64,000 bases of DNA from Terriglobales bacterium (GTDB taxonomy: Bacteria > Acidobacteriota > Terriglobia > Terriglobales > SCQP01), in NCBI GenBank assembly GCA_035531375.1, contig DATKSZ010000149.1, positions 903-64,902 of the forward strand, written 5' to 3'. How positions within the stretch are numbered: position 1 is the first letter of the stretch; every line of letters starts with the position of its first letter. The notes below the pieces were generated by a model. That model did no database searches, was not told where the DNA came from, and saw nothing but the letters and a program-made list of their open reading frames with translations. Shown one piece after another: positions 10,413 through 47,162 of the stretch. The translations under genes were made by a program, and so were the position numbers.

Positions 10413-11653
<1,241 letters not shown>

Positions 11654-11657
<4 letters not shown>

Positions 11658-13144: not shown

Positions 13145-13161
13145 GGGGGGTTCCTCCAGGG

Positions 13162-15192: not shown

Positions 15193-15231
15193 GGTACAGG
15201 CCCCCAGCGGGTGGCGCGCCGCCCCGCGCCG

Positions 15232-15636
15232 CTAGCGATTGCCGGCCGCCATCGGCGCCGGCGCGGTGTTCGCCGCCAAGGCCGGCGCCACCCCGTTGCT
15301 CGGCGCCGTCGCCAGCGCCAGGATCTGCCCCGGCTGCGCCGTCTGCATGCCCAACTGCGCCTGCGCCAGGGTATAAATTCGGTCCGGGCTGCGCAGCGCC
15401 GCCTGCTGCAGTTCCAGCCCGCGGTTCCACTGCTCCAGGCTGGCCGCCTGCTGCCGCGCCGCCTCCAACTGGTAGCCCAGCCGCACCATCTCGAAGCGCT
15501 GCCAGGCGTAGCCGAAGCCCAGCGCGAACACCACCATCACCGCCGCCAGGTACACCCGCTGCTCCCGCCGCCGCTGCGGGTCGGCGACGCGGACCACGCG
15601 CGAGTTGTCAATTTGTTGTACGAAGTAGATCTCCAT
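15232..15636 (-). CDS. ftsL: FtsL-like cell division protein
   Basis: Single TM helix (VYLAAVMVVFALGFGYAW) followed by a coiled region. Conserved slot between rsmH and ftsI. Confidence 0.6.
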   Translation of the reverse strand: MEIYFVQQIDNSRVVRVADPQRRREQRVYLAAVMVVFALGFGYAWQRFEMVRLGYQLEAARQQAASLEQWNRGLELQQAALRSPDRIYTLAQAQLGMQTAQPGQILALATAPSNGVAPALAANTAPAPMAAGNR

Positions 15637-15637
15637 C

Positions 15638-16540
15638 TCAGCCCTCCGCCCCCAACCGCTCCACCGCCCGCAGCTTGGCGCTGCGCGAACGCGGGTTCCG
15701 CGCCGCCTCCGCCGCGCTCGGCCGCAACGGCCGCGGCGTCAAAATCCGGTACCAGCCCGCCTGCGCCCCCGCCCGGAAGCTCTGCTTCACCGGACGGTCC
15801 TCCAACGAATGAAAACTGATGATCACCGCCCGGCCGCCCGGACGCAGCCAGCTCGGCAATATCTCCAGCAACTCGGCAAGGGCCTGCAACTCGGAGTTCA
15901 CGTAGATGCGCAGCGCCTGAAACGTCCGCGTCGCCGGATGCGGCCCCCGGCTGCGTTTCATTGGCCGGTTCACGGCCGCCACCAACTCCGCCAACTGGGC
16001 GGTGCTGCGCAGCGGCCGCGACCGGACAATGGCTCTGGCAATTCTCCGCGACCTCCTTTCCTCTCCGAATTGGAAAATCAGATCGGCCAGCTCGCGCTCG
16101 TCGAACTGATTCACCACCTGTTCCGCCGTCAGCGGCTGGCGAGGATCCATCCTCATGTCCAGCGGCCCCGCGGCGGCAAAGCTAAATCCCCGTTCGGGAC
16201 GGCCGAGCTGCATCGAGCTCACCCCCAGGTCGGCCACCACGCCGTCCACCTGGTCCATCCCCTCCGCCCGCAGCGCCCTCGCCCCTGCGGCAAAGTCCTG
16301 CTGCCGGGCCTCGAACTCCACCTCCCGCTCCCCCCGCCCCGCCAGCGCCTTCTCCGCCAGCGCCAGCGCCTCCGGGTCGCGGTCGAACCCGATCAACTTC
16401 CCCCGCCCCATCGCCGCCGCGATCCGCAGGCTGTGGCCGCCCGCTCCCAGCGTGCAGTCCACATACACCCCCCCCGCCCGCGGCGCCAAATACTCCACCA
16501 CCTCGTCGGCCATGACCGCGACATGTTCCGCCCCGGCCAC
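15638..16540 (-). CDS. rsmH: 16S rRNA (cytosine1402-N4)-methyltransferase
   Basis: HVAVM..VDCTLGAGGHS, FDRDPEA, DLGVSSMQL, ISFHSLEDR motifs. Confidence 0.9.
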   Translation of the reverse strand: MAGAEHVAVMADEVVEYLAPRAGGVYVDCTLGAGGHSLRIAAAMGRGKLIGFDRDPEALALAEKALAGRGEREVEFEARQQDFAAGARALRAEGMDQVDGVVADLGVSSMQLGRPERGFSFAAAGPLDMRMDPRQPLTAEQVVNQFDERELADLIFQFGEERRSRRIARAIVRSRPLRSTAQLAELVAAVNRPMKRSRGPHPATRTFQALRIYVNSELQALAELLEILPSWLRPGGRAVIISFHSLEDRPVKQSFRAGAQAGWYRILTPRPLRPSAAEAARNPRSRSAKLRAVERLGAEG

Positions 16541-16546
16541 GCCGCC

Positions 16547-16990
16547 CTATATCCCCAGGTCGGCCAGCGTCTGCTTGTCGGCGTCGGTGAACTCCTTCGC
16601 CTTCATCTCCGACAGCAGCCGCTCTTCGTTCCAGACTTCCAGGTACTGCAGGTACCCCAGCACCGCCACATCGCCCCGCATCTGCGCCGCCTCGCGCAGC
16701 ACCGCCGGGATTAGCACCCGCCCCTGCGCATCCATCTCCACCACCTGGCCAAAGTAGTTCGTCCGGCTCAGCAGCTTCTGCTTGGTCGGGTGCATCGAAG
16801 GCAACGCCGCCAGCCGCTCCTCGATCCGCTCCCACTCCCGCAGCGGGTACACCCGCGCGTTCACCCCGTCGAAGCTGGTGATATAGAACTGGTGGTTGGG
16901 GTTCGCCTGGTCCAGGTGGGCGCGGAACTCGGTGGGCAGCTTGAGCCGCCCCTTTTCGTCCACCCGCGCTGGATAGTTGCCCCGCAGCAT
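16547..16990 (-). CDS. mraZ: transcriptional regulator MraZ
   Basis: MLRGNYPARVDEKGRLKLP N-terminus and a second DAQGRVLIP SpoVT/AbrB-like repeat. The upstream in-frame ORF start at 17014 (GTG, not an ATG) would fall inside the operator boxes, so 16990 is preferred. Confidence 0.85.
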   Translation of the reverse strand: MLRGNYPARVDEKGRLKLPTEFRAHLDQANPNHQFYITSFDGVNARVYPLREWERIEERLAALPSMHPTKQKLLSRTNYFGQVVEMDAQGRVLIPAVLREAAQMRGDVAVLGYLQYLEVWNEERLLSEMKAKEFTDADKQTLADLGI

Positions 16991-17209: not shown

Positions 17210-18400
17210 ATGCGGGTGCTGGTGCTGGGCGGAACCGGGTTTGTGGGCTCCGCCCTGGTGAAGAGGTTGCTGGCCGAGGGCCACAGCGTCGCCGTCTTCC
17301 ACCGCGGCGCCATCGGCCGGCCTTGCCACTCCCTCGCCGTGGGCCCGCATCCGCCGCCGCTGTGCATCCACGGCGACCGCCGCCAGCTCGAGGCGTTCGC
17401 GGCCGCCTTCGCCCTGTTCGCGCCCGAGGTGGTGGTGGACGCCATCGCCGCCGCGGCCGCGCCGGCGCGGCGCACGCTGCGGCTGTTCGCCGCCTGGGCG
17501 CGGCGCGTGGTGCTGGTGGGCAGCATGGATGTCTACCGCGCCTGCGGCATCTTCCACGGCACCGAAGACGGCGGGCCCGAGCTGGGGGTGCTGGACGAGT
17601 CGGCGCCGCTGCGCCAGCGCCCCGGCCTCTACCCCGCCTCCACCCTGCAGCGCATGCGCCAGCTCTGCGGCTGGCTGGAAGAGGGCTACGACAAGTTGGG
17701 CATGGAGCAGGCGGCGGCCGCCTGCCCGGGCGTGGAGGTGGTGGTGGTGCGCCTAGCGCCGGTCTACGGCCCCGGCGACCGGCAGCGGCGGCTGCTGCCG
17801 CTGTGGCGGCCGATGCGCGACCGGCGGCGCGCCCTGCTGCTGCCGCGCGGCTGGGCGGAGTGGCGCAGCCCGCGCGGCTACGTCGAGAACGTGGCCGAGG
17901 GCCTCGCCCTGGCGGCCCTCCATCCCCGCGCCGCCGGACGCACCTACAACCTCGCCGACGCCGGCAACCACTCCGAGGCGGAGTGGGCGCAGCACCTCGC
18001 CGCCGCCTGCGCCTGGCCCGGGCGCCTGGTGGTCACCTCCCCGGCCCACACCCCGCCCCACCTACGCGTCTATGCCAACACCGCCCAGCCTTGGCTGGCC
18101 GACACCACCCGCATCCGCCGCGAGCTCGGCTACCGCGAGCGCGTCCCCCTGCCCGCGGCGCTCGCCGCCTCCCTCGCCTGGGAGCGACAGCAGCCCGCCC
18201 AGCCCGGCGACGCCGCCGACTACGCCGCCGCCGACTACGCCGCCGAAGACGCGGTGCTGCGCTGGCTGGGCATGGCGGCCGAGGCCGGCGCCTGGGGATG
18301 CAGCTTGGCGAACAGCGCCCACAGCATGGCCACCACCACCAGCACCCAGACGCTGCCCTCCGGCCCCACCGTGCCGCCGGTGATCCAGCTCGAGCCCTGA
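17210..18400 (+). CDS. NAD-dependent epimerase/dehydratase family protein
   Basis: MRVLVLGGTGFVGSALV Rossmann N-terminus. The long non-conserved tail overlaps the convergent CPBP gene by 166 nt. Confidence 0.75.
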   Translation: MRVLVLGGTGFVGSALVKRLLAEGHSVAVFHRGAIGRPCHSLAVGPHPPPLCIHGDRRQLEAFAAAFALFAPEVVVDAIAAAAAPARRTLRLFAAWARRVVLVGSMDVYRACGIFHGTEDGGPELGVLDESAPLRQRPGLYPASTLQRMRQLCGWLEEGYDKLGMEQAAAACPGVEVVVVRLAPVYGPGDRQRRLLPLWRPMRDRRRALLLPRGWAEWRSPRGYVENVAEGLALAALHPRAAGRTYNLADAGNHSEAEWAQHLAAACAWPGRLVVTSPAHTPPHLRVYANTAQPWLADTTRIRRELGYRERVPLPAALAASLAWERQQPAQPGDAADYAAADYAAEDAVLRWLGMAAEAGAWGCSLANSAHSMATTTSTQTLPSGPTVPPVIQLEP

Positions 18401-19158
18401 AAGTGCGGCTGCAGCAGCCGCCCGTGGCTGAGCAGCCCGCTGTCGGGCACGCCGTAGACAAAGCTCTGGCAGAAGTCCCAGGCGGCGTGCATGCCCACCG
18501 CAAACCACAGGTCGCCGGTGCGCCACCAGGTGAAACAGAAGAAAAAGCCCAGCAGCCCCGCCGAGGTCACGCCCAAGGGGGTTTCCCCGGGGTTGCGCAG
18601 GTGGACCGCCCCAAACGCCAACGAGAGCAGCATCGCCGCCGGCCAAAAGCCCACCCCGGCCCGCAGCGTGAACAGCGCATAGCCGCGGTAGCGGAACTCC
18701 TCGAACAGCGCCACCAGCAAAAACGCCAGCCCCCACTCCAGCCCGTAGCGCAGCGTCTCCATCCCCGGCCGCGCCCCCAGCCCCAGGCGCAGGTCGCCGC
18801 TGGCCCCGATCAGCAGCAGCAGCGCCGTGAGCGATCCCGCCCCCCACAGCGCCCCCTCCCAGAAGTTCCGGCGCAAGGCGCCCCGCGCCGGCAGCCCGTA
18901 GGTTCCCAGCGGGCGCTGCTCCAGCAAGGTCATCGCCAGCGTGGCGATCGCCACCCACAGCAGGGCGAATCCCTCGCCCATCGCCACCGCGCCCGGCGTG
19001 ATCACCAGGAGGGCGGGCGAGCTCGGCGCCAGCTTGCCCACCCCGCCGCTGAGCAGGTCGGGAATGCCCACCAGGATGAACCCGAACACCGCCAGCCGCC
19101 AGCCCGCCCGCAGCCCGGCGAAGTCGCGCTGCTCGGGCGAAGAGAACCAAAGGCTCAT
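18235..19158 (-). CDS. CPBP-family intramembrane glutamic endopeptidase (CAAX protease/Abi-like), paralog 1
   Basis: EEFRYRGYA, FGAVHLRN, HAAWDF motifs. Multiple TM helices. Confidence 0.8.
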   Translation of the reverse strand: MSLWFSSPEQRDFAGLRAGWRLAVFGFILVGIPDLLSGGVGKLAPSSPALLVITPGAVAMGEGFALLWVAIATLAMTLLEQRPLGTYGLPARGALRRNFWEGALWGAGSLTALLLLIGASGDLRLGLGARPGMETLRYGLEWGLAFLLVALFEEFRYRGYALFTLRAGVGFWPAAMLLSLAFGAVHLRNPGETPLGVTSAGLLGFFFCFTWWRTGDLWFAVGMHAAWDFCQSFVYGVPDSGLLSHGRLLQPHFQGSSWITGGTVGPEGSVWVLVVVAMLWALFAKLHPQAPASAAMPSQRSTASSAA

Positions 19159-20039
19159 GGCGTGGGCGCCGCCGCCGCTTGTGCCGCCGGGTGGCGCCGG
19201 GCGAACAGCACGAACAGCGCGGCAATCACCAGGAAGACATACACGCTGCCCTCGGGCCCCACGCTGCCGCCGGTGATCCAGTGCGAGCCGCGGAAGCTGG
19301 GGTGCATCAGGCTGCCGGGCAGGGTCGAGCCGCTGTCGGGCACGCCGAACAGAAAGCTCTCGCTATAGTCCCAGGCGGCATGCAGCCCCACCGCAAACCA
19401 GAGGTTGCCGGTGCGGCGCACGGTCAAACAGAAAAACAGCCCAATCCCCGCCGCCGCGAGCGCGCCCAGGATGCTCTCGCCGCTGTTGCCCAGGTGCAGC
19501 GCGCCAAACAGCGCCGACAATCCCACCGCCGCCGGCCAGAAGTCCAGCCCGCTGGCCAGCGTCACCAGCGCGTAGCCGCGGAAGCAGAACTCCTCGAACA
19601 GGCCCACGCTGACAAACGCCACCGCCCACTCCAGCGCCGACCGCACTGTGCCCGCGCTGGCGGTCAAGGGGGCGAAGCGCAGGCCGCCGCTGGCCGCGAT
19701 CAGCCCCAGCAACAGGCTCAGCGCCACGAACCCCCAGAGCGCTCCCCGCCAAAACTCGCCCCGGAAGGCGGCGCGCCCGGGCAGGCCGAAGTCGCCGAAA
19801 GGCCGCTGCTCCAGCCGCGCCAGGATCAGCGTCACCAGCCCCACCCACAGCAGCGGCACCCCATCGCCCACCCAGTGCGGGAGCGCCCGCGCCCACCCCG
19901 CCCCGGCGGCGCTGCTCATCGCCAGTCCATAGCCCAGCAGCGGACCCGCCACCATCAGCACAAACAGCGCGAAGCGCCAGCCCGCCCGCAAACCGCCCAA
20001 GTCGCGCCGCTCCGCCGACGTGTACCAAAGGCTCGCCAT
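19155..20039 (-). CDS. CPBP-family intramembrane glutamic endopeptidase, paralog 2
   Basis: EEFCFRGYA, FGALHLGN, HAAWDY motifs. Collinear with paralog 1, 4-nt overlap. Confidence 0.8.
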   Translation of the reverse strand: MASLWYTSAERRDLGGLRAGWRFALFVLMVAGPLLGYGLAMSSAAGAGWARALPHWVGDGVPLLWVGLVTLILARLEQRPFGDFGLPGRAAFRGEFWRGALWGFVALSLLLGLIAASGGLRFAPLTASAGTVRSALEWAVAFVSVGLFEEFCFRGYALVTLASGLDFWPAAVGLSALFGALHLGNSGESILGALAAAGIGLFFCLTVRRTGNLWFAVGLHAAWDYSESFLFGVPDSGSTLPGSLMHPSFRGSHWITGGSVGPEGSVYVFLVIAALFVLFARRHPAAQAAAAPTP

Positions 20040-20177: not shown

Positions 20178-20609
20178 TCAGCCCAGCGGGTCGAACACCC
20201 GCAGCCCGGCCACGGCGACAAAATCGCGGTCGTGCGTCCAAATCTCGGTGGCGCCGTCGTCGCGCGCCGCCAGCGCGATCTGCAGATCGAAAATCCGCCG
20301 TCCCAGGATCTCTCCCTGGCTGGCAATCGCCAACAGCCGCAGGCCAAAGTCGGCCTGGCCTTGCCATAGTTGCGCCCCCGCGTGGATCAGCGAAGCCAAG
20401 AAGGCAACGGCTTCGGTCGTTGTGGCAGCTTGCGCCCGCTCCCCACCCGCCCGCGTGGCCACGCTCCAAAACTCCGACGCGTTGGCGACGGTAAAGCCCC
20501 AGCCCCGGCCGTCCGCCTGCGCCCGCAACAAGGCTGCCCGCGCGGAGGCGTGCTCCGCCTCCTGCGGGAAGAACGCATAGAGCAGGAGGTTGGTATCCAC
20601 CGCGATCAC
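20178..20609 (-). CDS. vapC: PIN-domain toxin VapC
   Basis: GTG start overlapping the vapB stop (GTGA). IAVDTNLLLY, DLQIA, THDRDF acidic PIN residues. Confidence 0.8.
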   Translation of the reverse strand: MIAVDTNLLLYAFFPQEAEHASARAALLRAQADGRGWGFTVANASEFWSVATRAGGERAQAATTTEAVAFLASLIHAGAQLWQGQADFGLRLLAIASQGEILGRRIFDLQIALAARDDGATEIWTHDRDFVAVAGLRVFDPLG

Positions 20610-25950: not shown

Positions 25951-25956
25951 ACCCCT

Positions 25957-26249
25957 GGCGGGGGCCGCGCCGCTTTGCCTGCTGGCAAAAGCGGCGCGCA
26001 AGGCTGCGTGTAATTCCGCAGGGGCGCGCCAGTGGCGCGTCTGCGCCCCCGGGAAACGAATGCGGCGCGGCCCCAGCAATCCATTAACAAAACCGCGCAG
26101 CGCCGACTTGGGGCCAGGGGCCCCCAAGCCGGCGTGAGCATGCCGCCCCGCGCCGTTACAGCGGGGCGGCTCACAAGCGGGACGCGCGCCGCACCGGCCC
26201 GGCGCTGCTACAGCCGGGCCGGGCAGGCGCGCTGGAGTCCGCGCCCACT
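25957..26249 (+). repeat. mosaic hairpin repeat, copy B (long form)
   Basis: Same module order as copy G, without the H2 hairpin. Confidence 0.9.
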
Positions 26250-26296
26250 AACTTGTAGCAAAGTATGACCTTTCGCCTCCGCCCCGCATTTTTCTC

Positions 26297-26327
26297 TTGA
26301 CACCCGCCGCCCCGGTTCGGTTAGCCT
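26297..26327 (+). promoter_or_regulatory. possible promoter of the RHS locus
   Basis: TTGACA at 26297-26302. Only a weak -10 (TAGCCT, 19-nt spacer). AT-richer context. Confidence 0.3.
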
Positions 26328-26359
26328 GACCGCGCGGTGTGGCTCACAGGGTGACGGCA

Positions 26360-27009
26360 ATGCGGATGGCAAAAGACTTGCTCTCTCTCTCTCTCTCTCT
26401 CTCCTAGTTCTCGCTAGCGCCGCGCAGGCGCAGGTTCTTGCGGCGACGGGCTACATTGCCCGCGGCACAGCCACGGTCATCGGCCCGCGCGGCAGCGAGA
26501 GCGGTGCGATCACGGTCGCGGCCTGGGGCGAGGGCCACTGCAAGGTCACGATCGCCCTGGGGGGGCCGGGGGCGCGGCGCCAGTACACGGCCATCGCCAA
26601 CGGCAACCACGCCAGCATCTCGGCCCCGGCGGGAATGGCGGCGGCGGCGCCGCTGCCGCTCGGCCCGCCCGTCGGCTGTGCGCTGCTGCCGCAGGGGCTG
26701 GCCTACGACAAACTGGCCGCGGGCGGCGCGGCCAGCCTCACTGCGGATCCAGCGACGGGGCGGCCGCTGGCGCTGGTTTGGACGGCCCTTGCGCCCGGCG
26801 GCGGCGAAGCCGCAACGCTGGCCTACGGGAACTACCAGGTTTCCGGAGGGCTGAGCTACCCAGCCACGGTCACCGAGAGCGTGGCTGGCCAGACGCGGCT
26901 TGCCATCCGCTTCACCTCGATTGAAACCCATAGCCTCGCCGAGAGCGACTTCGCGCTGCCGCCGCCGCCGAAGGGCTTTCCCACCCGGACCACGGGAGGT
27001 GGGCTATGA
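26360..27009 (+). CDS. secreted protein gene interrupted by a frame shift in the (CT)11 tract (as sequenced: leader in frame 2, mature part in frame 1; first in-frame ATG only at 26635)
   Basis: See the first finding. Frame 1 is open from 26269 to 27009 with protein-like, high-GC3 translation from 26404. ATGA overlap with the RHS start. Confidence 0.6.
26381..26403 (+). repeat. (CT)11 dinucleotide microsatellite
   Basis: Perfect CTCTCTCTCTCTCTCTCTCTCTC. The only such tract seen in the window. Confidence 0.95.
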
Positions 27010-30000
27010 AGGCGCGGGTACTTGCTGGCCTCTTGCTTCTGGCACTCGCGGCGCTTCCGGCGGCGGCGCAGGTCAACACCTCGGGCTGGGGCAGCTTCCA
27101 GTCGCTGCCCGAGGGCCGCGTGGACCGCGGCGACCTCGACCTGCACCTCGAGTTCCCGATCTTCAATCGGGCCACCGTAGGGCGGGCGCAGGTGAAGGCG
27201 GTGCTGGTCTACGACAGCCAGTTTTGGCAGCCGGTGAACGGCGCCTGGGCGCCCGAGACGGGCGGAGGCTGGTGGCTGCGCACCGCCGCTGGGCATCTGA
27301 GCGAGACGACCACGGTGGACAGCGGTGCCTGCGGCTGGACCGACGGCAGCGGCACCGACGACGGCAGCGGCACCATCACCAACCACGCCTTTGCCTTCAC
27401 CGAGCCCGATGGCACGGTGGCGCCCGCGGGCAGCTACATCTCGGTCTATGCGCCCAACAGGATCCATCCCGAGGGCTACTACAACGACTGCCCGCCCTCG
27501 GACACACTGCCCATCACGACCTTCATCGGCGACGGCAAGGGCTACCGCGTGGTGATTGACAGCTCGGGCGCGGGAACGGCCTGGGACGGCGACGGCGACA
27601 ACCTGACCGACGGCCTCACCGATCCCAACGGCAACTCCGTCACCGTCTCCGCCGGGGCCCTGAACGACCCGCTGGGAACGGCGCTCACCGTCAGCGGCTC
27701 GGGAACCCCCAGCTCGCCCATCGTCTACACCTACACCGGCACGGGCGCCACCCCGGTGAGCGTCACCGAGAACTTCGAGTCGGTGTATGCCACCGGCAGC
27801 TTCGGCTGCTACCCCGGCTGGAGCGGGTACCTGAACCTGCCGGAATCCATCACCTATCCCGACAGCTCCGAGTACGTCTTCAGCTACGACTCGGCCGGCA
27901 GACTGGCCACGCTCACGCTCCCCACGGGCGGGGTGATCAGCTACAGCCAATCGCTTTCGAACAACTGCTCCTACACCACCAGCACCCTCACCCGCTCGGA
28001 GTCGCTGGATTCCGGCAAGGAATGGCTCTGGTGGAATTCCAGCGGCTCCTCCAGCGGGCAGACCACCCAGACCAGTCCGGACAACAACCTTTCCGTCTTT
28101 GACTTCGACGCCACCGGCGCGCTGACCGAGACCGACGCCTACAGCGGGCCGTCGACCGGGACCATAGAGAGCGAGACCACCATCGCCACCGGCTACAGCG
28201 GCGGCACCACCAAGACGGCGGTGACCGAGCTGTTCGGCCCAACTCCGCTCTACTCCCAGCACCAACAGACGTTCGACCCCTTCGACAACCTCACCGCCAG
28301 CAGCGACACCGACTGGGGCACAACCTCGCCTGGGGGCGCCATCCTGCGCCAGACGACGGCGGTCTACGGCACCAGCGGCGAGGCGGAGGTGCTCGCCAGC
28401 CGGACGGTGAGCGACGGCTCCGGCAACGAAGTGTCAAAGTCCACATTCTCCTACGACAGCCACGCCAATCTGCTGAGCGAGAGCGATTACGTCACCGGCA
28501 GCACATACCTCACCAAAAGCTACGCCTACAACAGCAACGGCACGGTGCACACCGCGACCGACGCCAACGGGGGGGTGACCACCTACAGCTACACCTGCGG
28601 CAGCGGGTTTTACCCCAGCAGCGTGCAGAGCGCCATCGCCCCGGTGGCCACCAGCGCCACTTGGGACTGCGCCGGCGGCGTGCAGCTAACCTCCACCGAC
28701 CCCAACGGCCAAACCACCACCACCGCCTACGACGATCCAACGCACATGTGGCGGCCGACCTCGATCACCGCGCCCGACGGCAGCCAGACCACGATCAGCT
28801 ACATCTCGCCCAACCAGGTGGAGCGGGCGCAAACCTACAATTCCGGCCACTCCACCGACGATGTGCTGACCACGCTCGACGCTCTGGGGCGTCCCGTCCT
28901 CAGCCAGCGCCGGCAATCGCCCGTCAGCGGGAGCTTTGATACGGTCGAGACTTGGTACGACGCCATGGACAGGCCGGTCCAGGCGAGCATGCCCTTCACC
29001 TCGACCGCCGGCGTCGGCGGTGGCGCCGCCTTCACCACCACCACCTACGACGAGTTCTCGCGTCCGCTGGTGGTGATCGACGGCGGCGGGGGAAAGGTGA
29101 GCTATGCCTACAGCCAGAACGACACCCTGATCACGGCCGGGCCGGCGCCGAGCGGGGAGAACACCAAGAGCAAGCAGGAGCAGTTCGACGGCTTGGGAAG
29201 GCTGCAGTCGGTGTGCGAGATCAACACGCTGGGGGGCGACGGGCCCTGCGGACAGACGGTGGCGCAGAGCGGGTATCTTACGGTCTATGCCCGCAACGCC
29301 CTGGGCCAAATCACCCAGGTCACCCAGAACGCGCAGACCACGCCCACCCAGACGCGGACTTTCAGCTTTGACCAGCTCGGCCGGCTGACGGCGGAGGCCA
29401 ACCCGGAGAGCGGGACCACCGCCTACACCTTCGACAGCGATGCGACCTGCGGGATCTCGGGAGGCGACTTGGTGAAGCGCGTGGACGCCAACGGCAACAC
29501 CACCTGCTACGCCTACGATTTGCTCCACCGGGTAACGCAGATCCGCTATCCGAGCGGCGATCCGAACCCCACGCCGGACAAGTATTTTGCCTACGACGGC
29601 GCCAGCCTGGACAACACCAGCATGGCCAACGTGGCGGGCAGGCTGGCCGAGGCCTACACCGGCACGCCGACGGCCAAGATCACCGACCTGGGCTTCAGCT
29701 ACCCCAATCCGGGCGCGGACGAAGAGGACGTCTACCAGTCCTCGCCCAACTCCGGCGGCTGGACCATCGCCATCGCCCAGCATTACGCCAACGGCGCGGT
29801 TTCGACGCTGACCTTGCCCACGGGCGTGCCGGCCATCACCTACAGCCTGGACGGCGAGGGCCGCCCGGTCGGCGCCATGGCGGGCACCGCGACGCTGGCG
29901 AAGAACGGCGTCTACTCGCCCGAGGGGCTGACCAGCCTGACCCTGGGCTCCAACGACAGCGACGGCTACCAGTACGACGCCAGTACCGGCCGCATGGAGC

Positions 30001-31631
30001 AGTACCAGTTCACGGTGGGCGGCGCGACCGACACCGGGACGCTCACTTGGAACGCCAACGGCTCGCTGGGGACGCTGGGGATCACCGACAACATCCCGGG
30101 CGCCGACGACACCCAGTCCTGCACCTACACCCACGACGACCTGGGCCGCATTGCCTCGGCGGCATGCACCGGCGGGGACAACTGGAGCCAGACCTTTTCC
30201 TACGATTCGCTGGGCAATGTACTGAAGAGCGGGACGCAATCGTTCCAGCCCAACTATGGGATCAACAACCGCATCTCGACCAACATCAACTTCACGGCCC
30301 ACTACGACAACGACGGCAATTTGCTCGACGACCCGGTGACGCCGGCCACCGGAGTCAACGCCTTCGACGCCGAGGGGCACGCGGTGACACTGGAGGGGAT
30401 CGGGGTGACGTATGACGCGCTGGGAAGGGCGGTGGAGGCGGCGGAGCCGGGCGGGACGATCGAGTTCCTGTATGGCCCGGGCGGGGGTAAACTGGCGGTG
30501 ATGAACGGGCAGACCCTGGCGGCCGCCTACATTCCGCTGCCGGGCGGGGGGACGGCGGTCTATCATGGTGCGACGCTGGCCTACTACCGGCATGCCGATT
30601 GGCTGGGCAGCTCGCGGCTGGCCTCGACCCCCGGCCGGACGCTCTATTCGGCCACCGCCTACGCGCCGTATGGGGAGCCGTACGAGGAGAGCGGGACGAT
30701 CGACCGCAATTTCACCGGCCAGAACCAGGACATCGTCGGCGGCCAGTACGACTTCCTCATGCGGGTGTACAACCCCATCCAAGGCCGTTGGTGGACGCCC
30801 GACCCCGCCGGCCTGGCGGCGGTGGACCCCAATGACCCGCAGAGCTGGAATCGCTACGCCTATGTCGGCGGCACCCCCCTGGAGGCCACCGATCCGCTCG
30901 GGCTGGACCCGTGCCCGCCGGGGAGCAGCGTGCAGTGGTGCTTTAGCGGGAGCTCGGTGCCTGGGCTGGGGCAGCAGAATACGCCGCCGGGCATGGGCAG
31001 CGGCGGCCTCGACCTGCTCATCGCTGCGCTGCAGCAGGAGCTCAGTCTCTTTTGGCCCGGCAGCGCCCAGCCTGCCATTGTCGTGCCCGGCAGCGGGAGT
31101 GGCGAGCCAACTAGCCCTGCGACGACGACTTCAGGAAAGCAAAGCAACACGCCGTGCAGCCACGGGATTGGCGTAGGCGCAATGAGTGGGGGCGCTGCCG
31201 AGGCGGGCGCTGGGGCCGCCGGCGCTGGAGTACAGGGCTCTGTCGGCGGCGGCCTGTTTTTCAACCCGCAAAATGACCTTAGCATTGGCGCGCTGGCCGC
31301 CGGCGGTGCCGTGGCCTATGCCGGGGGCGCTGTCTCCGGGGTGCCGCAGCAATACCCCAAGACTGCTCTTATCCTTGGGGCGTTCGCCGGCGCTGGCGGT
31401 GGCGTCTTCCTCACGAATGCGGGGTCAGTGTCCGAACTCGCGGGTCCATTTCTGACCCTCAGCGCGAATCTTGCGGTTTTTGGAATCAAGGGCAGCCTCC
31501 AGCTTGCCGTTGATCGCCACTGGACGGCCATGGCAACGTTTAGTCTCGGCGCCGGCCCGCCAGGGGCCGATTTTTCCGCATACACGACCGACACCGTGAC
31601 CACGGAGCCAGGGTGCTCCTGGGTGCCGTGA
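27006..31631 (+). CDS. RHS/YD-repeat polymorphic toxin with Sec leader and glycine-rich C-terminal domain
   Basis: GGGAGG Shine-Dalgarno sequence. Leader MKARVLAGLLLLALAALPAAAQ. Numerous YD repeats. RHS core end YNPIQGRWWTPDP..NRYAYVGGTPLEATDPLGL, followed by a 241-aa tail. Confidence 0.9.
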   Translation: MKARVLAGLLLLALAALPAAAQVNTSGWGSFQSLPEGRVDRGDLDLHLEFPIFNRATVGRAQVKAVLVYDSQFWQPVNGAWAPETGGGWWLRTAAGHLSETTTVDSGACGWTDGSGTDDGSGTITNHAFAFTEPDGTVAPAGSYISVYAPNRIHPEGYYNDCPPSDTLPITTFIGDGKGYRVVIDSSGAGTAWDGDGDNLTDGLTDPNGNSVTVSAGALNDPLGTALTVSGSGTPSSPIVYTYTGTGATPVSVTENFESVYATGSFGCYPGWSGYLNLPESITYPDSSEYVFSYDSAGRLATLTLPTGGVISYSQSLSNNCSYTTSTLTRSESLDSGKEWLWWNSSGSSSGQTTQTSPDNNLSVFDFDATGALTETDAYSGPSTGTIESETTIATGYSGGTTKTAVTELFGPTPLYSQHQQTFDPFDNLTASSDTDWGTTSPGGAILRQTTAVYGTSGEAEVLASRTVSDGSGNEVSKSTFSYDSHANLLSESDYVTGSTYLTKSYAYNSNGTVHTATDANGGVTTYSYTCGSGFYPSSVQSAIAPVATSATWDCAGGVQLTSTDPNGQTTTTAYDDPTHMWRPTSITAPDGSQTTISYISPNQVERAQTYNSGHSTDDVLTTLDALGRPVLSQRRQSPVSGSFDTVETWYDAMDRPVQASMPFTSTAGVGGGAAFTTTTYDEFSRPLVVIDGGGGKVSYAYSQNDTLITAGPAPSGENTKSKQEQFDGLGRLQSVCEINTLGGDGPCGQTVAQSGYLTVYARNALGQITQVTQNAQTTPTQTRTFSFDQLGRLTAEANPESGTTAYTFDSDATCGISGGDLVKRVDANGNTTCYAYDLLHRVTQIRYPSGDPNPTPDKYFAYDGASLDNTSMANVAGRLAEAYTGTPTAKITDLGFSYPNPGADEEDVYQSSPNSGGWTIAIAQHYANGAVSTLTLPTGVPAITYSLDGEGRPVGAMAGTATLAKNGVYSPEGLTSLTLGSNDSDGYQYDASTGRMEQYQFTVGGATDTGTLTWNANGSLGTLGITDNIPGADDTQSCTYTHDDLGRIASAACTGGDNWSQTFSYDSLGNVLKSGTQSFQPNYGINNRISTNINFTAHYDNDGNLLDDPVTPATGVNAFDAEGHAVTLEGIGVTYDALGRAVEAAEPGGTIEFLYGPGGGKLAVMNGQTLAAAYIPLPGGGTAVYHGATLAYYRHADWLGSSRLASTPGRTLYSATAYAPYGEPYEESGTIDRNFTGQNQDIVGGQYDFLMRVYNPIQGRWWTPDPAGLAAVDPNDPQSWNRYAYVGGTPLEATDPLGLDPCPPGSSVQWCFSGSSVPGLGQQNTPPGMGSGGLDLLIAALQQELSLFWPGSAQPAIVVPGSGSGEPTSPATTTSGKQSNTPCSHGIGVGAMSGGAAEAGAGAAGAGVQGSVGGGLFFNPQNDLSIGALAAGGAVAYAGGAVSGVPQQYPKTALILGAFAGAGGGVFLTNAGSVSELAGPFLTLSANLAVFGIKGSLQLAVDRHWTAMATFSLGAGPPGADFSAYTTDTVTTEPGCSWVP

Positions 31632-31894
31632 TGACAGGGCTCCCGCAGCAAATGTTTGAGGTTTTCCGGCCGATCGGCGTCCTGTTGGCGTACTCTTTCT
31701 GGCTGCTCGTACTGGCGAGGGCGCCTATTGTCGAGAAGGCGGAGAGATGGATTGAGCGGTCGGGCTTGGGCAGGTGTTCGAACTGGCTGCCGCAGGATTT
31801 CCGGACCGCAACTAGCCGCGGCTGGCGGTGGGTTGCTCTGGTTATCACGATTGGAATTTATGTGTCGCTGGTTTTGGCGCCCTGGGGCCTGTAG
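31631..31894 (+). CDS. small 2-TM membrane protein, candidate cognate immunity
   Basis: ATG shares one nucleotide with the RHS stop (TGATG). Predicted helices IGVLLAYSFWLLVLA and WVALVITIGIYVSLVLAPW. AT-richer sequence. An alternative GTG start lies at 31613. Confidence 0.55.
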   Translation: MTGLPQQMFEVFRPIGVLLAYSFWLLVLARAPIVEKAERWIERSGLGRCSNWLPQDFRTATSRGWRWVALVITIGIYVSLVLAPWGL

Positions 31895-31927
31895 CGGCGG
31901 GCACATGCCAGCATTGGACCGACGCAC

Positions 31928-32233
31928 ATGACGCGAGTTGACTTGCTTGTAGATGCCGCAATCCCCTTTCTGATCCCGCTGGGGCCGATTTGGATCTGTT
32001 ACGTAATCTTCCGGCTGGTGAATGGAGGGGCGCCCATGGGGCACCGTCAGAGATTCGTTACGGCGGCTTGGGCGTTCTTTTTCTTCGAATTCGGCATATT
32101 GGGCGCGCTTGGCTCCCTTTGGAATATCCAATTTCGAATTTCTATTTCGCTCGTGCTCTGCACCTTGCTGGCCTTGGTGGTCGGGCGCTGGTGGGCGGGG
32201 CGCGGGCAAGCGCGGAATGATTTGGGCGGCTGA
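31928..32233 (+). CDS. small 3-TM membrane protein (second immunity-like ORF)
   Basis: ATG start. Three hydrophobic segments. Same AT-richer patch. Confidence 0.5.
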   Translation: MTRVDLLVDAAIPFLIPLGPIWICYVIFRLVNGGAPMGHRQRFVTAAWAFFFFEFGILGALGSLWNIQFRISISLVLCTLLALVVGRWWAGRGQARNDLGG

Positions 32234-32384
32234 GCGCCAACGAAAAGTGGGCTCTGAACGAAAATCTGACAAGGTGCTCATTTCAAGCGGATTTCCGCAG
32301 GACAGGCCTGACCCGCAGACGGCTGGGCGTGGCAGCTGGGAAGGATGGAGCGTTCCTAAGGGGCACAGCGGTTGACCGTCCCCT

Positions 32385-32585
32385 TCGCGGGGGTCGCGCC
32401 GCTTTGCCTGTCGGCAAAATCGGCGCGAAAGGCCGCGAAATTCCGCAGGGCGGCCCGCCCCCGGGAAGCGACTTCGGCGCGGCCCCTGCGAGGCGCAGCG
32501 CCGGCTTGGGGCTCCGGGGCCCCCAAGCCGGCGTGAGCACAAGCGGGACGCGCGGCGCAGCCGCGCAGGGGCCCGCGCCCACCTT
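32385..32585 (+). repeat. mosaic hairpin repeat, copy C
   Basis: Head module (H1) plus H5 hairpin plus short tail. Confidence 0.9.
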
Positions 32586-34592: not shown

Positions 34593-34632
34593 CCGCGCGG
34601 CAGGGCCCGCGCCGCCGCCCGCCGCCCGCCGC

Positions 34633-34919
34633 TCGCGGCGGTCGCCCCGCTTTGCCTGCTGGCAAAATCGGCGCGAAAGCCCGAAATTCCGCAGGGGCAG
34701 ACGCGCCCGTGGCGCGTCTGCGCCCCCGGGAAACGGCGGCCCCAGCAGCCCAGCAGCGAAGCCGCGCAGCGCCGGCTTGGGGCCATGGGGCCCCCGAGTC
34801 GGCGCGAGCATGCCGCCCCGCGCCGTTGCAGCGGGGCGGCACACAAGCGGGACGCGCGGCGCACCGGCCCGGCGCTGCTCCAGCCGGGCCGGGCAGGCGC
34901 GCTGGGGCCCGCGCCCACC
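34633..34919 (+). repeat. mosaic hairpin repeat, copy D (long form)
   Basis: Its last base abuts the TAA stop of the FG-GAP gene. Confidence 0.9.
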
Positions 34920-37900
34920 TTAGTTCAGAATCGTCAGCGTCAAGTTCAGCGCCGGCAGCGAGCCGCCGGTCATGTTGGCGCCGATGGCGATGGGCACTGC
35001 CCCCGCCGGCGGCGGCGTCCCGCCCCCGCCCAGGTTCGGCGCCGCGCTGGAGCCGCAGCCCACCAGTCCGCCGCCCAGGGCGAGGCCCAGCACCACCGCC
35101 AGGGCCCAGCCGCCGCGCCGCCCGCGGCGCTTGCGCCACCCCAGCGGCAGCAGTCCCAGCAGCGCCAGCGGCCACGCCATCGCCAGGTCGAATCCGCCCG
35201 GCGGCGGCAGCCCGGCCACGGTGGCGTCCACCGTGATGGTGAGCACGGTCGAGGCCGAGTCGCCCGCGCCGGCCAAGGTTGTCGGGATGGGATTGGGCGA
35301 GAAGCCGCAGTGCACATAGGCCGGCAGCGTGCTGGGGCAGGTGAAGGTGATGGGCGCGGAGAAGCCGTTGGGCGTGGTCACGGTGAGGGTGGTGGTGACG
35401 CTCTCGCCGCCCGAGGCCGTCAGCGACGAGGGGTTGGCGCTGATCAGGTACTGCACCGTGGCGTCTTGCGGCGTGGTGACGTTGGCGCTCTCGAAGTTGC
35501 TGTCGCCCGAGTAGGAAGCGGTGATGGCGTAGGGCGTGGCGCTGGGCGCCAGCACCGGCGACAGCACCCCGGCGTTGGAGCTCAGCGCCACCGCGCCGCC
35601 GGGGATGGCAATGCCGTTGCTGTAGAAGGTGATCGTGCCCGAGGGGTTGGGCGCGTTCCCCAGCGTCGCCGTGGTCGAGACCGTGCCGGTCAAGACCAGC
35701 GGCGTGATGCTGGCGCCGCTGGCCACGCCCCCGCTCACCGCCAGCGTCAGCGTGGTCGGCGCCTTGCCCAGGGTGTAGGAAGTGGCGTCGGCGCCCTGGC
35801 TGCTTTGGAAGTTGCCGCTGGCGTCGCTGTAGCAGGCGGTGACGGTGAGGCCGCTGCCGGCCCCCACCACCACGCCGGAGACGCTGGCGGCGCCGTTCTG
35901 CACCGTGGCCGTGGCCACGTAGGCGGAGACCGAGCAGGCCGCCCCCGCCGTCCCCACGATAAAGCCCACGCTGCCCTCGGCCACCGGCGCGCTGGCGTTG
36001 TTGCTGTTCGCCACCGTGGCGCTGAAGCTCACCGGGCCGGGATAGGTGTTGGTCGCCTCGGTGAAGCTGGCGCTGACCGCGGTCGGCGCCGCCGTCACCT
36101 GCAGCGGCACGGTGCCGGCGGTGGTGCTGGCGGCGAAGCTGCCGCTGCCGCTGTAGCTGGCCGAGACCAGGTAGCTGCCCACCGGAATGGCGCCGCTGGC
36201 GCTGGCCGTGCCGCCCTGCACCGAGGCCGCCATCAGTTGCACCGGGCTGGCACAGGCCCCGGTCGCGGGACACAGGCTGAAGGTCACCGACCCGCCCGCC
36301 ACCGATCCCCCCGTCCAGGTCACCGCCGCCGTCAGCGTGCCCGGGCCGGGATAGACCGCCGTCGCCGCCAGTCCGGTGACGGTGATCGTGGTCGATGTCG
36401 CGCTGCTCGAGGCCACCCCGTTGTTGACCAGCAGCGCCGCCCCCTGGCTGGTCGAGACCAGCACGCCGGGGCTGCCCCCCACCGGCGCGGTTCCCGCCGC
36501 CGCCAGGTTCGAATCCACCCCGGCCACCGTCCCCACCGTCGGCGGCAGCAGTTGTCCCTTCACGTTTTGATAGGCGTAGGCGACGCCATTCGCCAGCGCC
36601 ACCACGTCCGGCAGCGCCGAGCCGTAGAACTTGCCGGTGGCCAGCACCGGGTCGTAGCTGACGCAGCCGGCGTAGTTGCCCCCGGCGTTGCAGTTGGGCC
36701 CGGGAATGCTGTCGCCGGCGTAGAGCGGCTGCGCCGGCTGCGGGGTGAAGCTGCCCGCCTGCCCCGCGGTGTTGAGCAGCACCTGCACCCCCTGGCTGCC
36801 CGCCACCACGAGGTCGGGCAGGCCGTCGCCGTTGATGTCGGCCGAGGCCACCGCGCTGAAGTTGGGGTAGGGCGTTCCCACCGCCTGGCTCAACAGCGTG
36901 GGGTTGGTCGGCGCCACCAGCATGCCGCCGTTGTTTTGCAAAATCCCCACCGCCGCGCCGCCCTGAGCGGCGGTGTTGCCGCTGCACAACTCGCCGCCAT
37001 CCACCAGCGCCAGGTCGGGCTGCTTGCCCTGGAAAAAGAAGTCGGCCGCCCCCGCCACCGGGTTCACCACCGGCGGCGCCACGTACACCGGGTTGGCGAA
37101 GGTGCCATCGCCCTTGCCCAGGAACACATACACCGCCCCCAGCGAATCCCCCGTGCCGTCGTTGTTGCAGTTGTTGCCGTTTTCCGGGAGCACCAGCACC
37201 AGGTCGGCCTTGCCATCGCCGTTGACGTCGAAGGCGAACATCTGCGGCTGCGCCCCCGCCCCGGGCGTGCTGGGCCGGTAGTTGTAGCCGGGATAGCCGG
37301 GGGCCGCGGAGAGGTTGTAGCTATAGGTCGGGGTGAAGGTCCCGTCGCCGTTCGCGCCCATCACCACCACCGTGTCCGCGCCAAACAGCGCCAAGTCGCT
37401 GTTGCTCGAGGGCCCGAAGTTGCCCGCCACCTCGGCATCGGCGCCGCTGTAGCTCAGGCTGGCATTGGCGACCGTGGTCACCGGCACAGTGGTGGTGGTG
37501 GGCAGCGCCCCGCTGGCGTTGGCCAGGTAGACGGTGAAGTTGGGCTCGCCCGTCGCCAAGTCGCCGCCCAGCACCGCCAAGTCGGTCTTGCCGTCGCCGT
37601 TGAAGTCGCCGGTGGCGAAGCCGGGCGGAAAGTTGTACCCATTGCGGCCGGTGCCGGGATAGAGCGTTGCCGTGCCGCCCACCGCCCCCGCCGCGTTCAG
37701 CACATAGACGTCAATCGAGCGCTCGTCGGTGAAGCTTTGGAAAATAGGAAACGAGCCGGCGTGGACGCCGGCGCCGATGACCACGTAGCCTGGGCTGGCC
37801 AGGTTGGGCGAGTAACCGCTGGCCAGCGCCTGCTCCGGCGGGCTCAGCGCCCCGCTCGCCTGCCAGGTGCCGTTGAACGTGCCCCCGCTGCCGCTGAAGT

Positions 37901-38930
37901 TGGAGTAGGAGCTGACCTCGAGGCTGTTGGACGCGTCCAGGTAGGCGAACTCGATGCTGCTGGTTCCGCTGCTGTTCAGCACCGTCAGCGCCGAGCCCAG
38001 CGGCGATCCGCCCTGCGGCACCAGCGAGACCGCCGCGAAGGTGCCGCTGCCGTCGCTCTGGAAGGCCTGGATGGCCTGGGAGGTGTTGGTCCAGAACAGC
38101 GCCGGCAGGTTGTCGAATTCCCCCGCCGCCAGCCCGCCGCTGGTCCCGTTCAGCGAGATCTGCTGGCTGGGGGCGGGGCCGAAGGTCCCGCTGCCCTGGT
38201 TGGGGAAGATGTACAGGGCGTCGAAGGAGATGGGGCCGCACACCAGCGCCAAGTCCACCCGCCCGTTGGAGGGGCTGGTGAAGCTGCCGCCCACGATGGC
38301 GCTGCAGCGGTAGCCCGTCTGCGCCGCCGGGTAGGCGGTGCCCGCCCCGCTGGGCAGGCCGCCGCCGTTGGGCGCCAGGAAAACGGTGAACGCGCCGGCG
38401 CCGTTGGGAATGGCGGCGAGGTCGCTGAAGCCGTTGCCGTCCAGGTCGGCCACCGCCAGGGCGGCGAAGCCGCCCGTCGCCGTGATGGCGCTGGCGCTCA
38501 GGCTGAAGTTGCCGCTGCCGTCGTTGGTCAGATACACAATGCCGCTGTTGGTCGCCACCGCCAAGTCGAAGGTGGTGGCGCTGCGGAAGCCGCCGCCGGC
38601 GATGGCGTTGCCCCGCACCCCCGCTCCCAGCGACACCACCGCCGTGCTGGCAAAGCTGCCGTCGGCCTGGCCCTGGAAGATATCCACCTCGTCGCCGGCG
38701 CCGTTGGGGTTCTCCAGCAGCACGGCGAAGTCGAGCAGGCCGTTGCTGGCGTTGAACACGCCGGTGGCCACCGCCTTGGGGATGGTTCCCGCCGGCGCCT
38801 CGTAGGCGGCGGCGCCGCCCAACTGCAGCGGCGTCGCGTTCTGCGCCCCCGCGGCGGCGGCGAGGAGCAGCAGCGCGCCCACCAGCCGGATCACCCTCGC
38901 GTCCACCCCACGCCGGGACAAGTGTGTCAT
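34920..38930 (-). CDS. FG-GAP/VCBS-repeat plus Ig-like-domain surface protein (1336 aa)
   Basis: Start MTHLSRRGVDARVIRLVGALLLLAAAAGA (leader). Repeats DLDGNGFSDLA, DFNGDGKTDLA, DVNGDGKADLV, DINGDGLPDLV. Then about 5 Ig-like modules and an unusual double hydrophobic C-terminus. Confidence 0.85.
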   Translation of the reverse strand: MTHLSRRGVDARVIRLVGALLLLAAAAGAQNATPLQLGGAAAYEAPAGTIPKAVATGVFNASNGLLDFAVLLENPNGAGDEVDIFQGQADGSFASTAVVSLGAGVRGNAIAGGGFRSATTFDLAVATNSGIVYLTNDGSGNFSLSASAITATGGFAALAVADLDGNGFSDLAAIPNGAGAFTVFLAPNGGGLPSGAGTAYPAAQTGYRCSAIVGGSFTSPSNGRVDLALVCGPISFDALYIFPNQGSGTFGPAPSQQISLNGTSGGLAAGEFDNLPALFWTNTSQAIQAFQSDGSGTFAAVSLVPQGGSPLGSALTVLNSSGTSSIEFAYLDASNSLEVSSYSNFSGSGGTFNGTWQASGALSPPEQALASGYSPNLASPGYVVIGAGVHAGSFPIFQSFTDERSIDVYVLNAAGAVGGTATLYPGTGRNGYNFPPGFATGDFNGDGKTDLAVLGGDLATGEPNFTVYLANASGALPTTTTVPVTTVANASLSYSGADAEVAGNFGPSSNSDLALFGADTVVVMGANGDGTFTPTYSYNLSAAPGYPGYNYRPSTPGAGAQPQMFAFDVNGDGKADLVLVLPENGNNCNNDGTGDSLGAVYVFLGKGDGTFANPVYVAPPVVNPVAGAADFFFQGKQPDLALVDGGELCSGNTAAQGGAAVGILQNNGGMLVAPTNPTLLSQAVGTPYPNFSAVASADINGDGLPDLVVAGSQGVQVLLNTAGQAGSFTPQPAQPLYAGDSIPGPNCNAGGNYAGCVSYDPVLATGKFYGSALPDVVALANGVAYAYQNVKGQLLPPTVGTVAGVDSNLAAAGTAPVGGSPGVLVSTSQGAALLVNNGVASSSATSTTITVTGLAATAVYPGPGTLTAAVTWTGGSVAGGSVTFSLCPATGACASPVQLMAASVQGGTASASGAIPVGSYLVSASYSGSGSFAASTTAGTVPLQVTAAPTAVSASFTEATNTYPGPVSFSATVANSNNASAPVAEGSVGFIVGTAGAACSVSAYVATATVQNGAASVSGVVVGAGSGLTVTACYSDASGNFQSSQGADATSYTLGKAPTTLTLAVSGGVASGASITPLVLTGTVSTTATLGNAPNPSGTITFYSNGIAIPGGAVALSSNAGVLSPVLAPSATPYAITASYSGDSNFESANVTTPQDATVQYLISANPSSLTASGGESVTTTLTVTTPNGFSAPITFTCPSTLPAYVHCGFSPNPIPTTLAGAGDSASTVLTITVDATVAGLPPPGGFDLAMAWPLALLGLLPLGWRKRRGRRGGWALAVVLGLALGGGLVGCGSSAAPNLGGGGTPPPAGAVPIAIGANMTGGSLPALNLTLTILN

Positions 38931-47128: not shown

Positions 47129-47162
47129 TTCGGCAGCCCCGCGCGCTCCCGAACCCAGCCCC

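Follow-up and report, generated by a model that had tools for sequence, protein, structure and literature searches.

The stretch of DNA analysed here, 64,000 nucleotides of a Terriglobales bacterium (contig DATKSZ010000149.1 of assembly GCA_035531375.1; hereafter the window), carries a putative toxin operon built around a large gene of the RHS/YD-repeat family. This open reading frame (ORF) lies at 27006..31631 on the plus strand and encodes 1541 amino acids. Directly upstream, at 26360..27009 (+), is a smaller gene for a secreted protein with a predicted LolA/LolB-type fold, here called the partner, and two small ORFs for putative membrane proteins follow the RHS gene. The signal-peptide codons of the partner gene contain a perfect CT dinucleotide repeat. 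A preliminary description of the stretch had read the RHS protein as a classical leader, a YD-repeat shell and an RHS core, and the matches in Pfam and NCBIfam together with our own reading of the leader bore this out.

The RHS protein begins with a signal peptide of 22 residues, MKARVLAGLLLLALAALPAAAQ, encoded at 27006..27071 (+) and read from the sequence. Its start is charged, its middle part hydrophobic, and small residues lie at its end, as expected of n, h and c regions; it closes with AAAQ and appears to be of the Sec type. Neither a lipobox cysteine nor a twin-arginine motif was seen when this leader was read, and comparable leaders begin all the partner-linked RHS orthologues. The YD-repeat shell, or cage, extends over 27873..30659 (+) and was recognised with Pfam RHS_repeat (E value 9e-25), NCBIfam YD_repeat_2x (TIGR01643, E 1e-10), a precomputed TEN_YD-shell annotation and Foldseek. 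The RHS-associated core follows at residues 1219-1300 (30660..30905, +; NCBIfam Rhs_assc_core TIGR03696, E 4e-15) with the motifs YNPIQGRWWTPDP at residues 1255-1267, PDPAGL at 1265-1270 and TDPLGL at 1295-1300. Both aspartate motifs of the self-cleaving core (xDPxGL ... DPxGL) are intact, and the core is predicted to be a site of autoproteolysis.

Between the leader and the bulk of the shell lies a conserved N-terminal region that is specific to this family (residues 23 to ~330; 27072..27995, +), delimited by alignments, a profile search and an AlphaFold2 (AF2) model. The region is all-beta and holds the motifs DLHLEFP, CGW and FGC as well as the first YD repeat, and a profile built from it retrieved at least 170 proteins of about 30% identity from Acidobacteriota. 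The AF2 model of residues 23-700, based on an alignment of 66 sequences, had a predicted local distance difference test score (pLDDT) of 78.8 and showed beta-hairpins from its first residues on. When this partial model was searched with Foldseek, it matched whole shells of type VI secretion system (T6SS) Rhs cages, teneurins and the BC cocoons of Tc toxins. The template modelling (TM) scores were low, and going by these whole-shell matches the N-terminal region may be either a plug or an external domain. Searches with Pfam and NCBIfam revealed no PAAR, prePAAR or other VgrG-docking domain in the RHS protein, nor any VgrG-linked, SpvB/TcdB or two-partner-secretion domain, in agreement with the preliminary description, which had recognised no PAAR or other N-terminal trafficking domain. 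DUF1020 was likewise absent from the protein according to Pfam.

The partner ORF starts with the ATG at 26360 and, in the frame as assembled, stops at 26405-26407, right after the CT tract, i.e. the gene is frame-shifted and in an OFF state. If one CT unit is removed, the gene encodes a protein of ~215 amino acids that consists of the signal peptide MRMAKDLLSLSLSLLVLASAAQA followed by QVLAATGY... and altogether ~190 further residues. The restored frame ends with the TGA at 27007-27009, which overlaps the RHS start codon in the sequence ATGA, and a Shine-Dalgarno sequence, GGAGGTG, lies in the last codons of the partner gene (26990..27009, +, together with the overlap). Past the tract the frame is open and conserved, with no second lesion. 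The earlier view of the upstream gene as phase-interrupted and ATGA-coupled to the RHS gene was thus accurate, the frame shift being located in the (CT)11.5 repeat. No lipobox cysteine follows the leader and the partner has no lipid anchor. Conservation within the close family of loci described below extends to two of its cysteines, Cys46 and Cys92, and the 16 cysteines of the RHS protein fall into eight near-neighbour pairs; such cysteine pairing and the conserved cysteines of the partner would fit an oxidising, extracytoplasmic location of both proteins.

The partner encoded in the window had no match in Pfam or NCBIfam, and its relationship emerged from structure prediction. The AF2 model obtained from an alignment of 14 sequences (pLDDT 87, predicted TM score 0.82) consists of long antiparallel strands with two short central helices. 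The top ~45 Foldseek matches in the PDB were all LolB, LolA or members of the LolA superfamily, including 3bk5, 3buu, MucB and DUF1329 structures, and the best match had an E value of 7e-6 and a probability of 1.0 at a TM-score of ~0.45-0.55. The open beta half-barrel with a helical lid that is a feature of the LolA/LolB superfamily is present in the predicted structure. In sequence comparisons a profile of 40 family members placed LolB in the top five of 177,635 PDB sequences, at a non-significant E value of ~0.2 and in register over the C-terminal third, and single members gave weak matches to Pfam LolB and DUF4292 (E 0.13-0.14). All Pfam models of LolA, LolB and LolA-like families remained below threshold. 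Judged by the predicted model, the partner is a protein of LolA/LolB-type fold; of the loose resemblance to LolA/LolB carriers that had been suggested from its C-terminus, the fold was confirmed, while membership in these families by sequence was not.

Homologues of the partner are rare. Only 14 were found among 5.8 billion clustered proteins, and when 1.84 billion representatives were scanned with a HMMER profile, 64 clusters were matched, of which ~58 were real. Scans of contig collections yielded one partner locus from genomes and three from metagenomes. Named sources were Terriglobales, Candidatus Sulfopaludibacter and metagenome-assembled genomes of related Acidobacteriota. All real matches were stand-alone proteins of ~100-285 amino acids. 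The possibility that the partner itself contains YD-like repeats was considered and rejected, as the large proteins matched by its profile, in 3-15 stretches each, were three VCBS/cadherin-like and two other non-YD repeat proteins, none of them a fusion.

At every related locus that could be read, the partner gene was found directly upstream of an RHS gene. The close family, in which the two genes overlap by ATGA, comprises the window and the loci L001, L002/3, L004, L005, L006/7, L008, L009-11, L012/13, L018/19 and L022, and all of these have a GGAGGTG..ATGA or GGGGG..ATGA junction. L001 lies on a public contig of 2.06 Mb that is 99% identical to the window, and the RHS ORF of 1541 amino acids is intact there too. 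The same contig carries a second copy of the pair (L015, 9577-14526), ~116 kb away by the record coordinates. This copy is decayed, with the 3' end of the partner gene and the 5' end of the RHS gene deleted and the RHS gene interrupted by DDE and Tn5-like transposases, and the pair is nevertheless kept. The preliminary description had regarded its proposal as open to refutation if the upstream ORF proved not to be conserved next to RHS homologues; conservation was seen at every locus examined.

A remote subfamily was sampled at three loci, L016 from Acidiferrales and the Sulfotelmatobacter-like L017 and L023. At all three, a secreted protein of 261-269 amino acids is encoded directly upstream of genes with the same N-terminal domain and RHS repeats. 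These upstream proteins form one family, for which no family or structure annotation was found, and hhalign related it to the partner family with a probability of 84% (E 7.6e-6) in an alignment that includes the terminal ..SDF motif. As the remote subfamily is paired in the same way, the pairing must be older than the close family. Across loci the N-terminal ~330 residues of the RHS protein are conserved, and the C-terminal domains after the core are unrelated. The partner thus accompanies the conserved RHS N-terminus and not the variable toxin end, and is therefore an accessory rather than an immunity protein; an immunity role was also rejected because the gene lies upstream and not downstream of the toxin gene. 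A mirror-tree comparison of partner identity with RHS N-domain identity gave a weak correlation (r = 0.45 over 28 pairs).

The constant pairing could also be explained if the partner were a cap or plug of the cage supplied in trans, much as TcB completes the TcC cocoon, with no carrier function. In the model of the N-terminal ~285 residues of the RHS protein the beta-hairpins simply continue and a globular plug domain of its own is not seen, the partner appeared in its model as an open, curved beta-sheet, and the two genes adjoin and overlap in every case, all of which would suit a cap. On the other hand, the matches that the partner profile gave in large repeat proteins concerned VCBS/cadherin-like and not YD repeats and look spurious, and there was not a single fusion of partner and RHS protein among the ~58 clusters. 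We consider a mere cap improbable.

Since the window has a GC content of ~71% and contains many spurious overlapping ORFs, its genes were called with the help of a codon-usage score, and the ~46 genes called in the 64 kb were scanned with Pfam. None of them belonged to a T6SS, to a type II secretion system (T2SS), to two-partner secretion or to the TcA type, as had been noted earlier for VgrG, Hcp, T6SS, Tc and two-partner-secretion genes. Neither vgrG, hcp and eag nor other T6SS genes were found in the window or in the flanks of related loci, and the flanks of ~15 related loci, the contexts of which otherwise differ, contained no dedicated secretion genes. In the close family the genes around the pair are unrelated housekeeping genes that are different at each locus.

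These results bear on the more conventional explanation that the RHS protein is a T6SS effector, with a transmembrane segment of the prePAAR type at its N-terminus, a cytoplasmic Eag-like chaperone encoded upstream and a VgrG/T6SS cluster elsewhere in the genome. Upstream chaperone genes of the Eag/DUF1795 type and N-terminal hydrophobic segments are indeed typical of one class of T6SS Rhs proteins, the shell was structurally closest to T6SS Rhs cages in the Foldseek search, and the search for T6SS genes covered the window and the related contexts only. However, neither a PAAR nor a prePAAR motif was seen in the RHS protein, and DUF1795 was not matched. The upstream protein has a signal peptide of its own, both in the restored frame and in the orthologues that are ON, and its fold matches LolB and LolA and not Eag. 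The RHS leader has the n/h/c organisation and the AAAQ end described above, cysteines are paired in both proteins, and T6SS genes were lacking from the window and from all ~15 related contexts. An Eag-type chaperone with a prePAAR effector was rejected on these grounds, and T6SS delivery appears very improbable.

The last 241 residues of the RHS protein, after the core, form a variable C-terminal domain (30906..31631, +), recognised by composition and hydropathy. It contains 19% glycine and 14% alanine, several glycine-zipper motifs of the GxxxGxxxG type and 2-3 hydrophobic segments. The corresponding domain of L006 is unrelated to it, whereas the cores of the two proteins are conserved. From its composition and position we predict that the domain is a membrane-inserting toxin. 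Downstream are an ORF of 93 amino acids with two hydrophobic segments (31613..31894, +), a candidate immunity gene by hydropathy and position, and an ORF of 101 amino acids with three hydrophobic segments (31928..32233, +), which on the same basis may be an immunity gene or an orphan immunity gene. They correspond to the small membrane proteins seen in the preliminary description, were also called as genes in L001, and are both predicted to encode integral-membrane immunity proteins. Neither the C-terminal domain nor the two ORFs had a match in Pfam, NCBIfam or PDB sequences. Compared with the 71% GC of the window, the RHS gene has 67% and the region after its stop codon that holds the two ORFs (31632-32380) has 59%, which is consistent with a horizontally swapped toxin-immunity cassette.

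The CT repeat, 23 nt in length, occupies 26381..26403 (+) and encodes the Leu-Ser core (LSLSLS) of the partner signal peptide. It is the only period-2 array among the repeats listed for the window, beyond which there were 32 low-scoring entries, and a tract length divisible by three would restore the partner frame. A CT tract is present at the same codons in orthologues of 40-60% protein identity: it measures 31 nt in L001 (9739-9769), 23 nt in L009-11 (L009 4113-4135), 29 nt in L014 (9593-9621), and 19 nt in each of L008 (9952-9970), L022 (154-172) and L015 (9603-9621). In L005 it is interrupted (17 nt + 10 nt), as it is in L004 and L018/19, and in L002, L006 and L012 it is missing. All copies with long uninterrupted tracts are out of frame, and the frame is kept wherever the tract is interrupted or lacking. 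Tract length also varies between near-identical sequences. The window and L001 differ by 8 nt (23 and 31 nt) between flanks that are 99.4% identical, and 10 nt of CT constitute the sole difference between L014 and L015 in 3764 bp (29 and 19 nt, no mismatches). An in-ORF tract that sets the reading frame and length variation between near-identical sequences are both features of contingency loci, and the CT tract is a candidate phase switch that would operate by slipped-strand mispairing.

It might be argued instead that the locus is a decaying, non-functional remnant and that its frame shift arose from a pseudogenising mutation or an error in sequencing. In favour of decay, every long-tract copy is out of frame, the RHS gene is split or interrupted by insertion sequences (IS) in L002, L009, L015, L017 and L023, and a single long-read-style assembly is the source of two of the sequences compared. 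Yet the RHS ORF is intact in both the window and L001, the partner frame shows no damage beyond the tract, the tract is retained at the same codons in distant orthologues while other orthologues are in frame, and L014 and L015 differ over 3764 bp in nothing but CT units. The recurrence of the tract in different species cannot be technical. Decay or sequencing error seems to us a most improbable explanation of the locus as a whole.

The RHS gene has a ribosome-binding site of its own. An OFF partner gene would probably nevertheless silence the RHS gene, or the operon, as well, by polarity or by loss of translational coupling. Upstream of the partner gene, a motif resembling TGTGAC/TTGTAGCA, a T-run and TTGAC(A) follow each other at 26240-26330, and equivalents were found in L002, L005, L006, L008, L009 and L012. 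The candidate promoter element TTGACA itself is at 26297..26302 (+) with the T-run and the TGTGAC/TTGTAGCA-like motif on its 5' side; it was picked out by conservation, TTGAC being present in eight of nine aligned upstream regions and replaced by TTGGC in L004. A scan with the sigma-70 consensus found no full promoter upstream of the partner gene. The conserved elements may represent a regulator site and the -35 box of the operon.

A comparable switch is found in the opa genes of Neisseria, where CTCTT repeats in the region coding for the signal peptide set the ON/OFF frame. In both cases a pyrimidine-rich short tandem repeat in the hydrophobic core of a leader sets the frame. The repeat described here differs in being a dinucleotide, (CT)n, and in belonging to a toxin operon of a soil acidobacterium, and its switching is predicted from sequence. 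Full-text literature searches found no description of phase variation by simple sequence repeats in polymorphic toxins or in Acidobacteria, and a repeat switch of such a toxin operon appears to be undescribed.

RHS proteins with signal peptides that have been studied experimentally include Bacillus subtilis WapA and Pseudomonas aeruginosa RhsT. In their survey of polymorphic toxins, Zhang et al. (2012; PMC3482391, Table 1) listed a 'T2SS/Sec-dependent' class in which a signal peptide is the only N-terminal signature and RHS is among the repeats. This Sec class has no signature neighbour gene, lineage-specific domains after the signal peptide were noted, and the C-terminal domain of P. aeruginosa RhsT was listed under T2SS (PMC3482391). 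The toxin described here resembles this class in having the signal peptide as its sole trafficking signature, a cage, a DPxGL core, a variable toxin domain with candidate immunity genes downstream, and no signature secretion gene nearby. It differs in the translationally overlapping upstream partner of LolB fold and in the family-specific RHS N-terminal region, and its host is a diderm acidobacterium, so that the outer membrane has still to be crossed. The preliminary description had presented the Sec-dependent RHS route as poorly described, which overstated its novelty; as RHS toxins with a signal peptide only are already a listed class, the new element is the partner and not the Sec leader. 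Literature searches did not turn up any LolA-like partner described for Rhs toxins, and a LolB-fold partner of an RHS toxin appears to be undescribed.

The partner shares with LolA/LolB and their superfamily (LprG, RseB/MucB, NE2245, DUF1329) periplasmic export and the predicted open beta half-barrel with short helices. Unlike LolA/LolB, it lacks Pfam membership, a lipid anchor and a lolCDE neighbourhood, the Pfam scan having found no lolCDE-type genes in the window; it is confined to ~58 clusters, and its obligate neighbour encodes an RHS toxin and not a lipoprotein. With the T6SS Rhs-Eag pairs and the TcB-TcC pair of Tc toxins the system has in common the cage fold, the self-cleaving core and a helper or second subunit encoded immediately upstream. 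It is set apart from them by having no PAAR or prePAAR, VgrG or Eag and by Sec leaders on both proteins. As regards Tc toxins, neither an N-terminal region of the TcB type (SpvB/TcdB mid domains) in the RHS protein nor a TcA-like gene in the window was found.

The closest operon logic is that of the MafA-MafB-MafI system of Neisseria. There, an operon restricted to one lineage encodes first a small exported partner, then a toxin that depends on Sec and has a lineage-restricted N-terminal domain and polymorphic C-terminus, and last an immunity protein, an order also seen here with candidate immunity genes at the end. The likeness does not extend further: MafB has DUF1020 and no RHS cage, whereas the present toxin has an RHS cage and no DUF1020, and the outer-membrane lipoprotein MafA contrasts with a partner that has no lipobox. 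Both TcA and MafA-like adhesins are thought to bind the envelope of target cells on behalf of their toxins. The partner could similarly be a targeting subunit or adhesin that binds lipid or glycolipid, travels with the RHS cage and attaches to the envelope of the target cell. LolA/LolB-superfamily folds provide lipid-binding cavities, and the structural matches include LolA/B, LprG and RseB/MucB; the stoichiometric ATGA coupling would suit a complex that stays together. MafA is a surface-exposed glycolipid-binding lipoprotein, and deletion of mafA did not stop MafB secretion, the outer-membrane route of which was unknown (Jamet et al. 2015; PMC4287609). Against this, the partner has neither a lipid anchor nor adhesin repeats, and the present data would fit a chaperone role equally well. 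A targeting role is conceivable, but we regard it as unlikely.

Taken together, we estimate a probability of roughly 60% that the locus, composed of partner, toxin, candidate immunity proteins and CT switch, is an operon of Terriglobia for a polymorphic RHS toxin that is exported through Sec and without a T6SS. In the mechanism that we propose, Sec would carry both the partner and the RHS protein into the periplasm, and there the partner would encounter the RHS protein and bind its conserved N-terminal region. It could then act as an assembly, escort or outer-membrane-targeting factor or, alternatively, as a cage cap or lipid-binding targeting subunit. Passage across the outer membrane would rely on some general route with genes at another place, for example T2SS, vesicles or lysis. 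The core would cleave itself, the released C-terminal domain would attack the membrane of neighbouring bacteria, and the small downstream membrane proteins would protect the producer. Changes in the CT tract would switch the partner, and probably the operon, on and off and result in stochastic deployment.

We infer the role of the partner from synteny, from its co-variation with the RHS N-terminus and from the shared periplasmic export of the two proteins. Within this general model an escort or chaperone function is the likeliest single role, although we put it forward tentatively and well below even odds. A bolder version, which we hold with somewhat less conviction still, would make the LolB-fold protein the dedicated periplasmic or outer-membrane factor of a hitherto unrecognised route by which diderms deliver RHS cages independently of a T6SS. 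After recognising the N-terminal region of the RHS protein, it would pass the cage of ~160 kDa to the outer membrane or across it, and the complete toxin system would be deployed stochastically by the (CT)n switch.

Several points weigh against the toxin operon that we propose, or against parts of it. The physical link between partner and RHS protein is putative, being derived from gene order and co-variation. The fold match of the partner was obtained with a predicted model at a moderate TM-score of ~0.5 and with no Pfam LolA/LolB model over threshold; moreover, the RHS protein is not a lipoprotein, so the acyl chains that are the classical ligand of LolA/LolB are absent. The dispensability of MafA for MafB secretion (PMC4287609) calls for caution about a secretion role, as an upstream partner need not be a secretion factor. 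The negative results for T6SS and T2SS cover only the window and the flanks of related loci. The roles as toxin and immunity proteins are based on position, composition and hydropathy, as the C-terminal domain and the small ORFs have no homology annotation. As for the switch, both length comparisons include one long-read-style assembly (contig_6581, the source of L001 and L015), so that the variation may be partly technical. With all the long-tract copies OFF, and with splits or IS insertions in several of the RHS genes, some of the loci may be decaying.

The toxin module is flanked by copies of a dispersed intergenic repeat of ~300 bp that is rich in GC and hairpins. One copy is directly upstream (25951..26250, +) and a partial copy directly downstream (32381-32539, same orientation); further copies, all oriented alike, are at 1318-1474, 34629-34918, 47159-47498, 54643-54775 and 63837-64000. 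The window and L001, though 99% identical, do not have the same set of copies, which suggests that the repeat is a mobile element resembling miniature inverted-repeat transposable elements.

Elsewhere in the window, the Pfam scan identified a complete dcw cluster from mraZ to murG (5718-16990, -) as well as genes for MsrA, glycosyltransferases, an acyltransferase, FecR, a large FG-GAP protein, a transglutaminase and a TonB-dependent receptor. Further housekeeping context is provided at 50370-53482 (+) and 59443-63678 (-) by Tol-Pal genes (TolB-Pal-YbgF-like) and an AcrB/HlyD-type efflux pair of the resistance-nodulation-division family. A few kilobases upstream of the toxin module are two Rce1-like CAAX protease genes in tandem and a gene with a PIN domain (18235-20039, -, and 20178-20609, -), and the same layout is seen in L001. 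The FG-GAP protein, encoded at 34920-38906 (-), has 1328 amino acids with FG-GAP/VCBS repeats and Big_3_5 domains and gave a borderline match to TcdB_toxin_midN (24.9 bits, the cut-off being 24.8). It was considered as a Tc-like partner of the RHS protein and rejected, being encoded on the opposite strand with unrelated genes in between and missing at the other loci.

RHS cages rank with the most common containers of bacterial toxins. To our knowledge, nobody knows how, outside the T6SS and Tc systems, an RHS protein that has only a signal peptide leaves a diderm cell or enters its target. The linked and co-varying LolB-fold partner is a concrete and testable candidate factor for T6SS-independent RHS delivery in diderms. 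The conserved CT switch, in turn, suggests that soil Acidobacteria, which are seen as slow and poorly tractable, run contingency loci in the style of pathogens on their interbacterial weapons. If the toxin is indeed deployed stochastically through the (CT)n tract, this would be a contingency locus in a free-living soil phylum.

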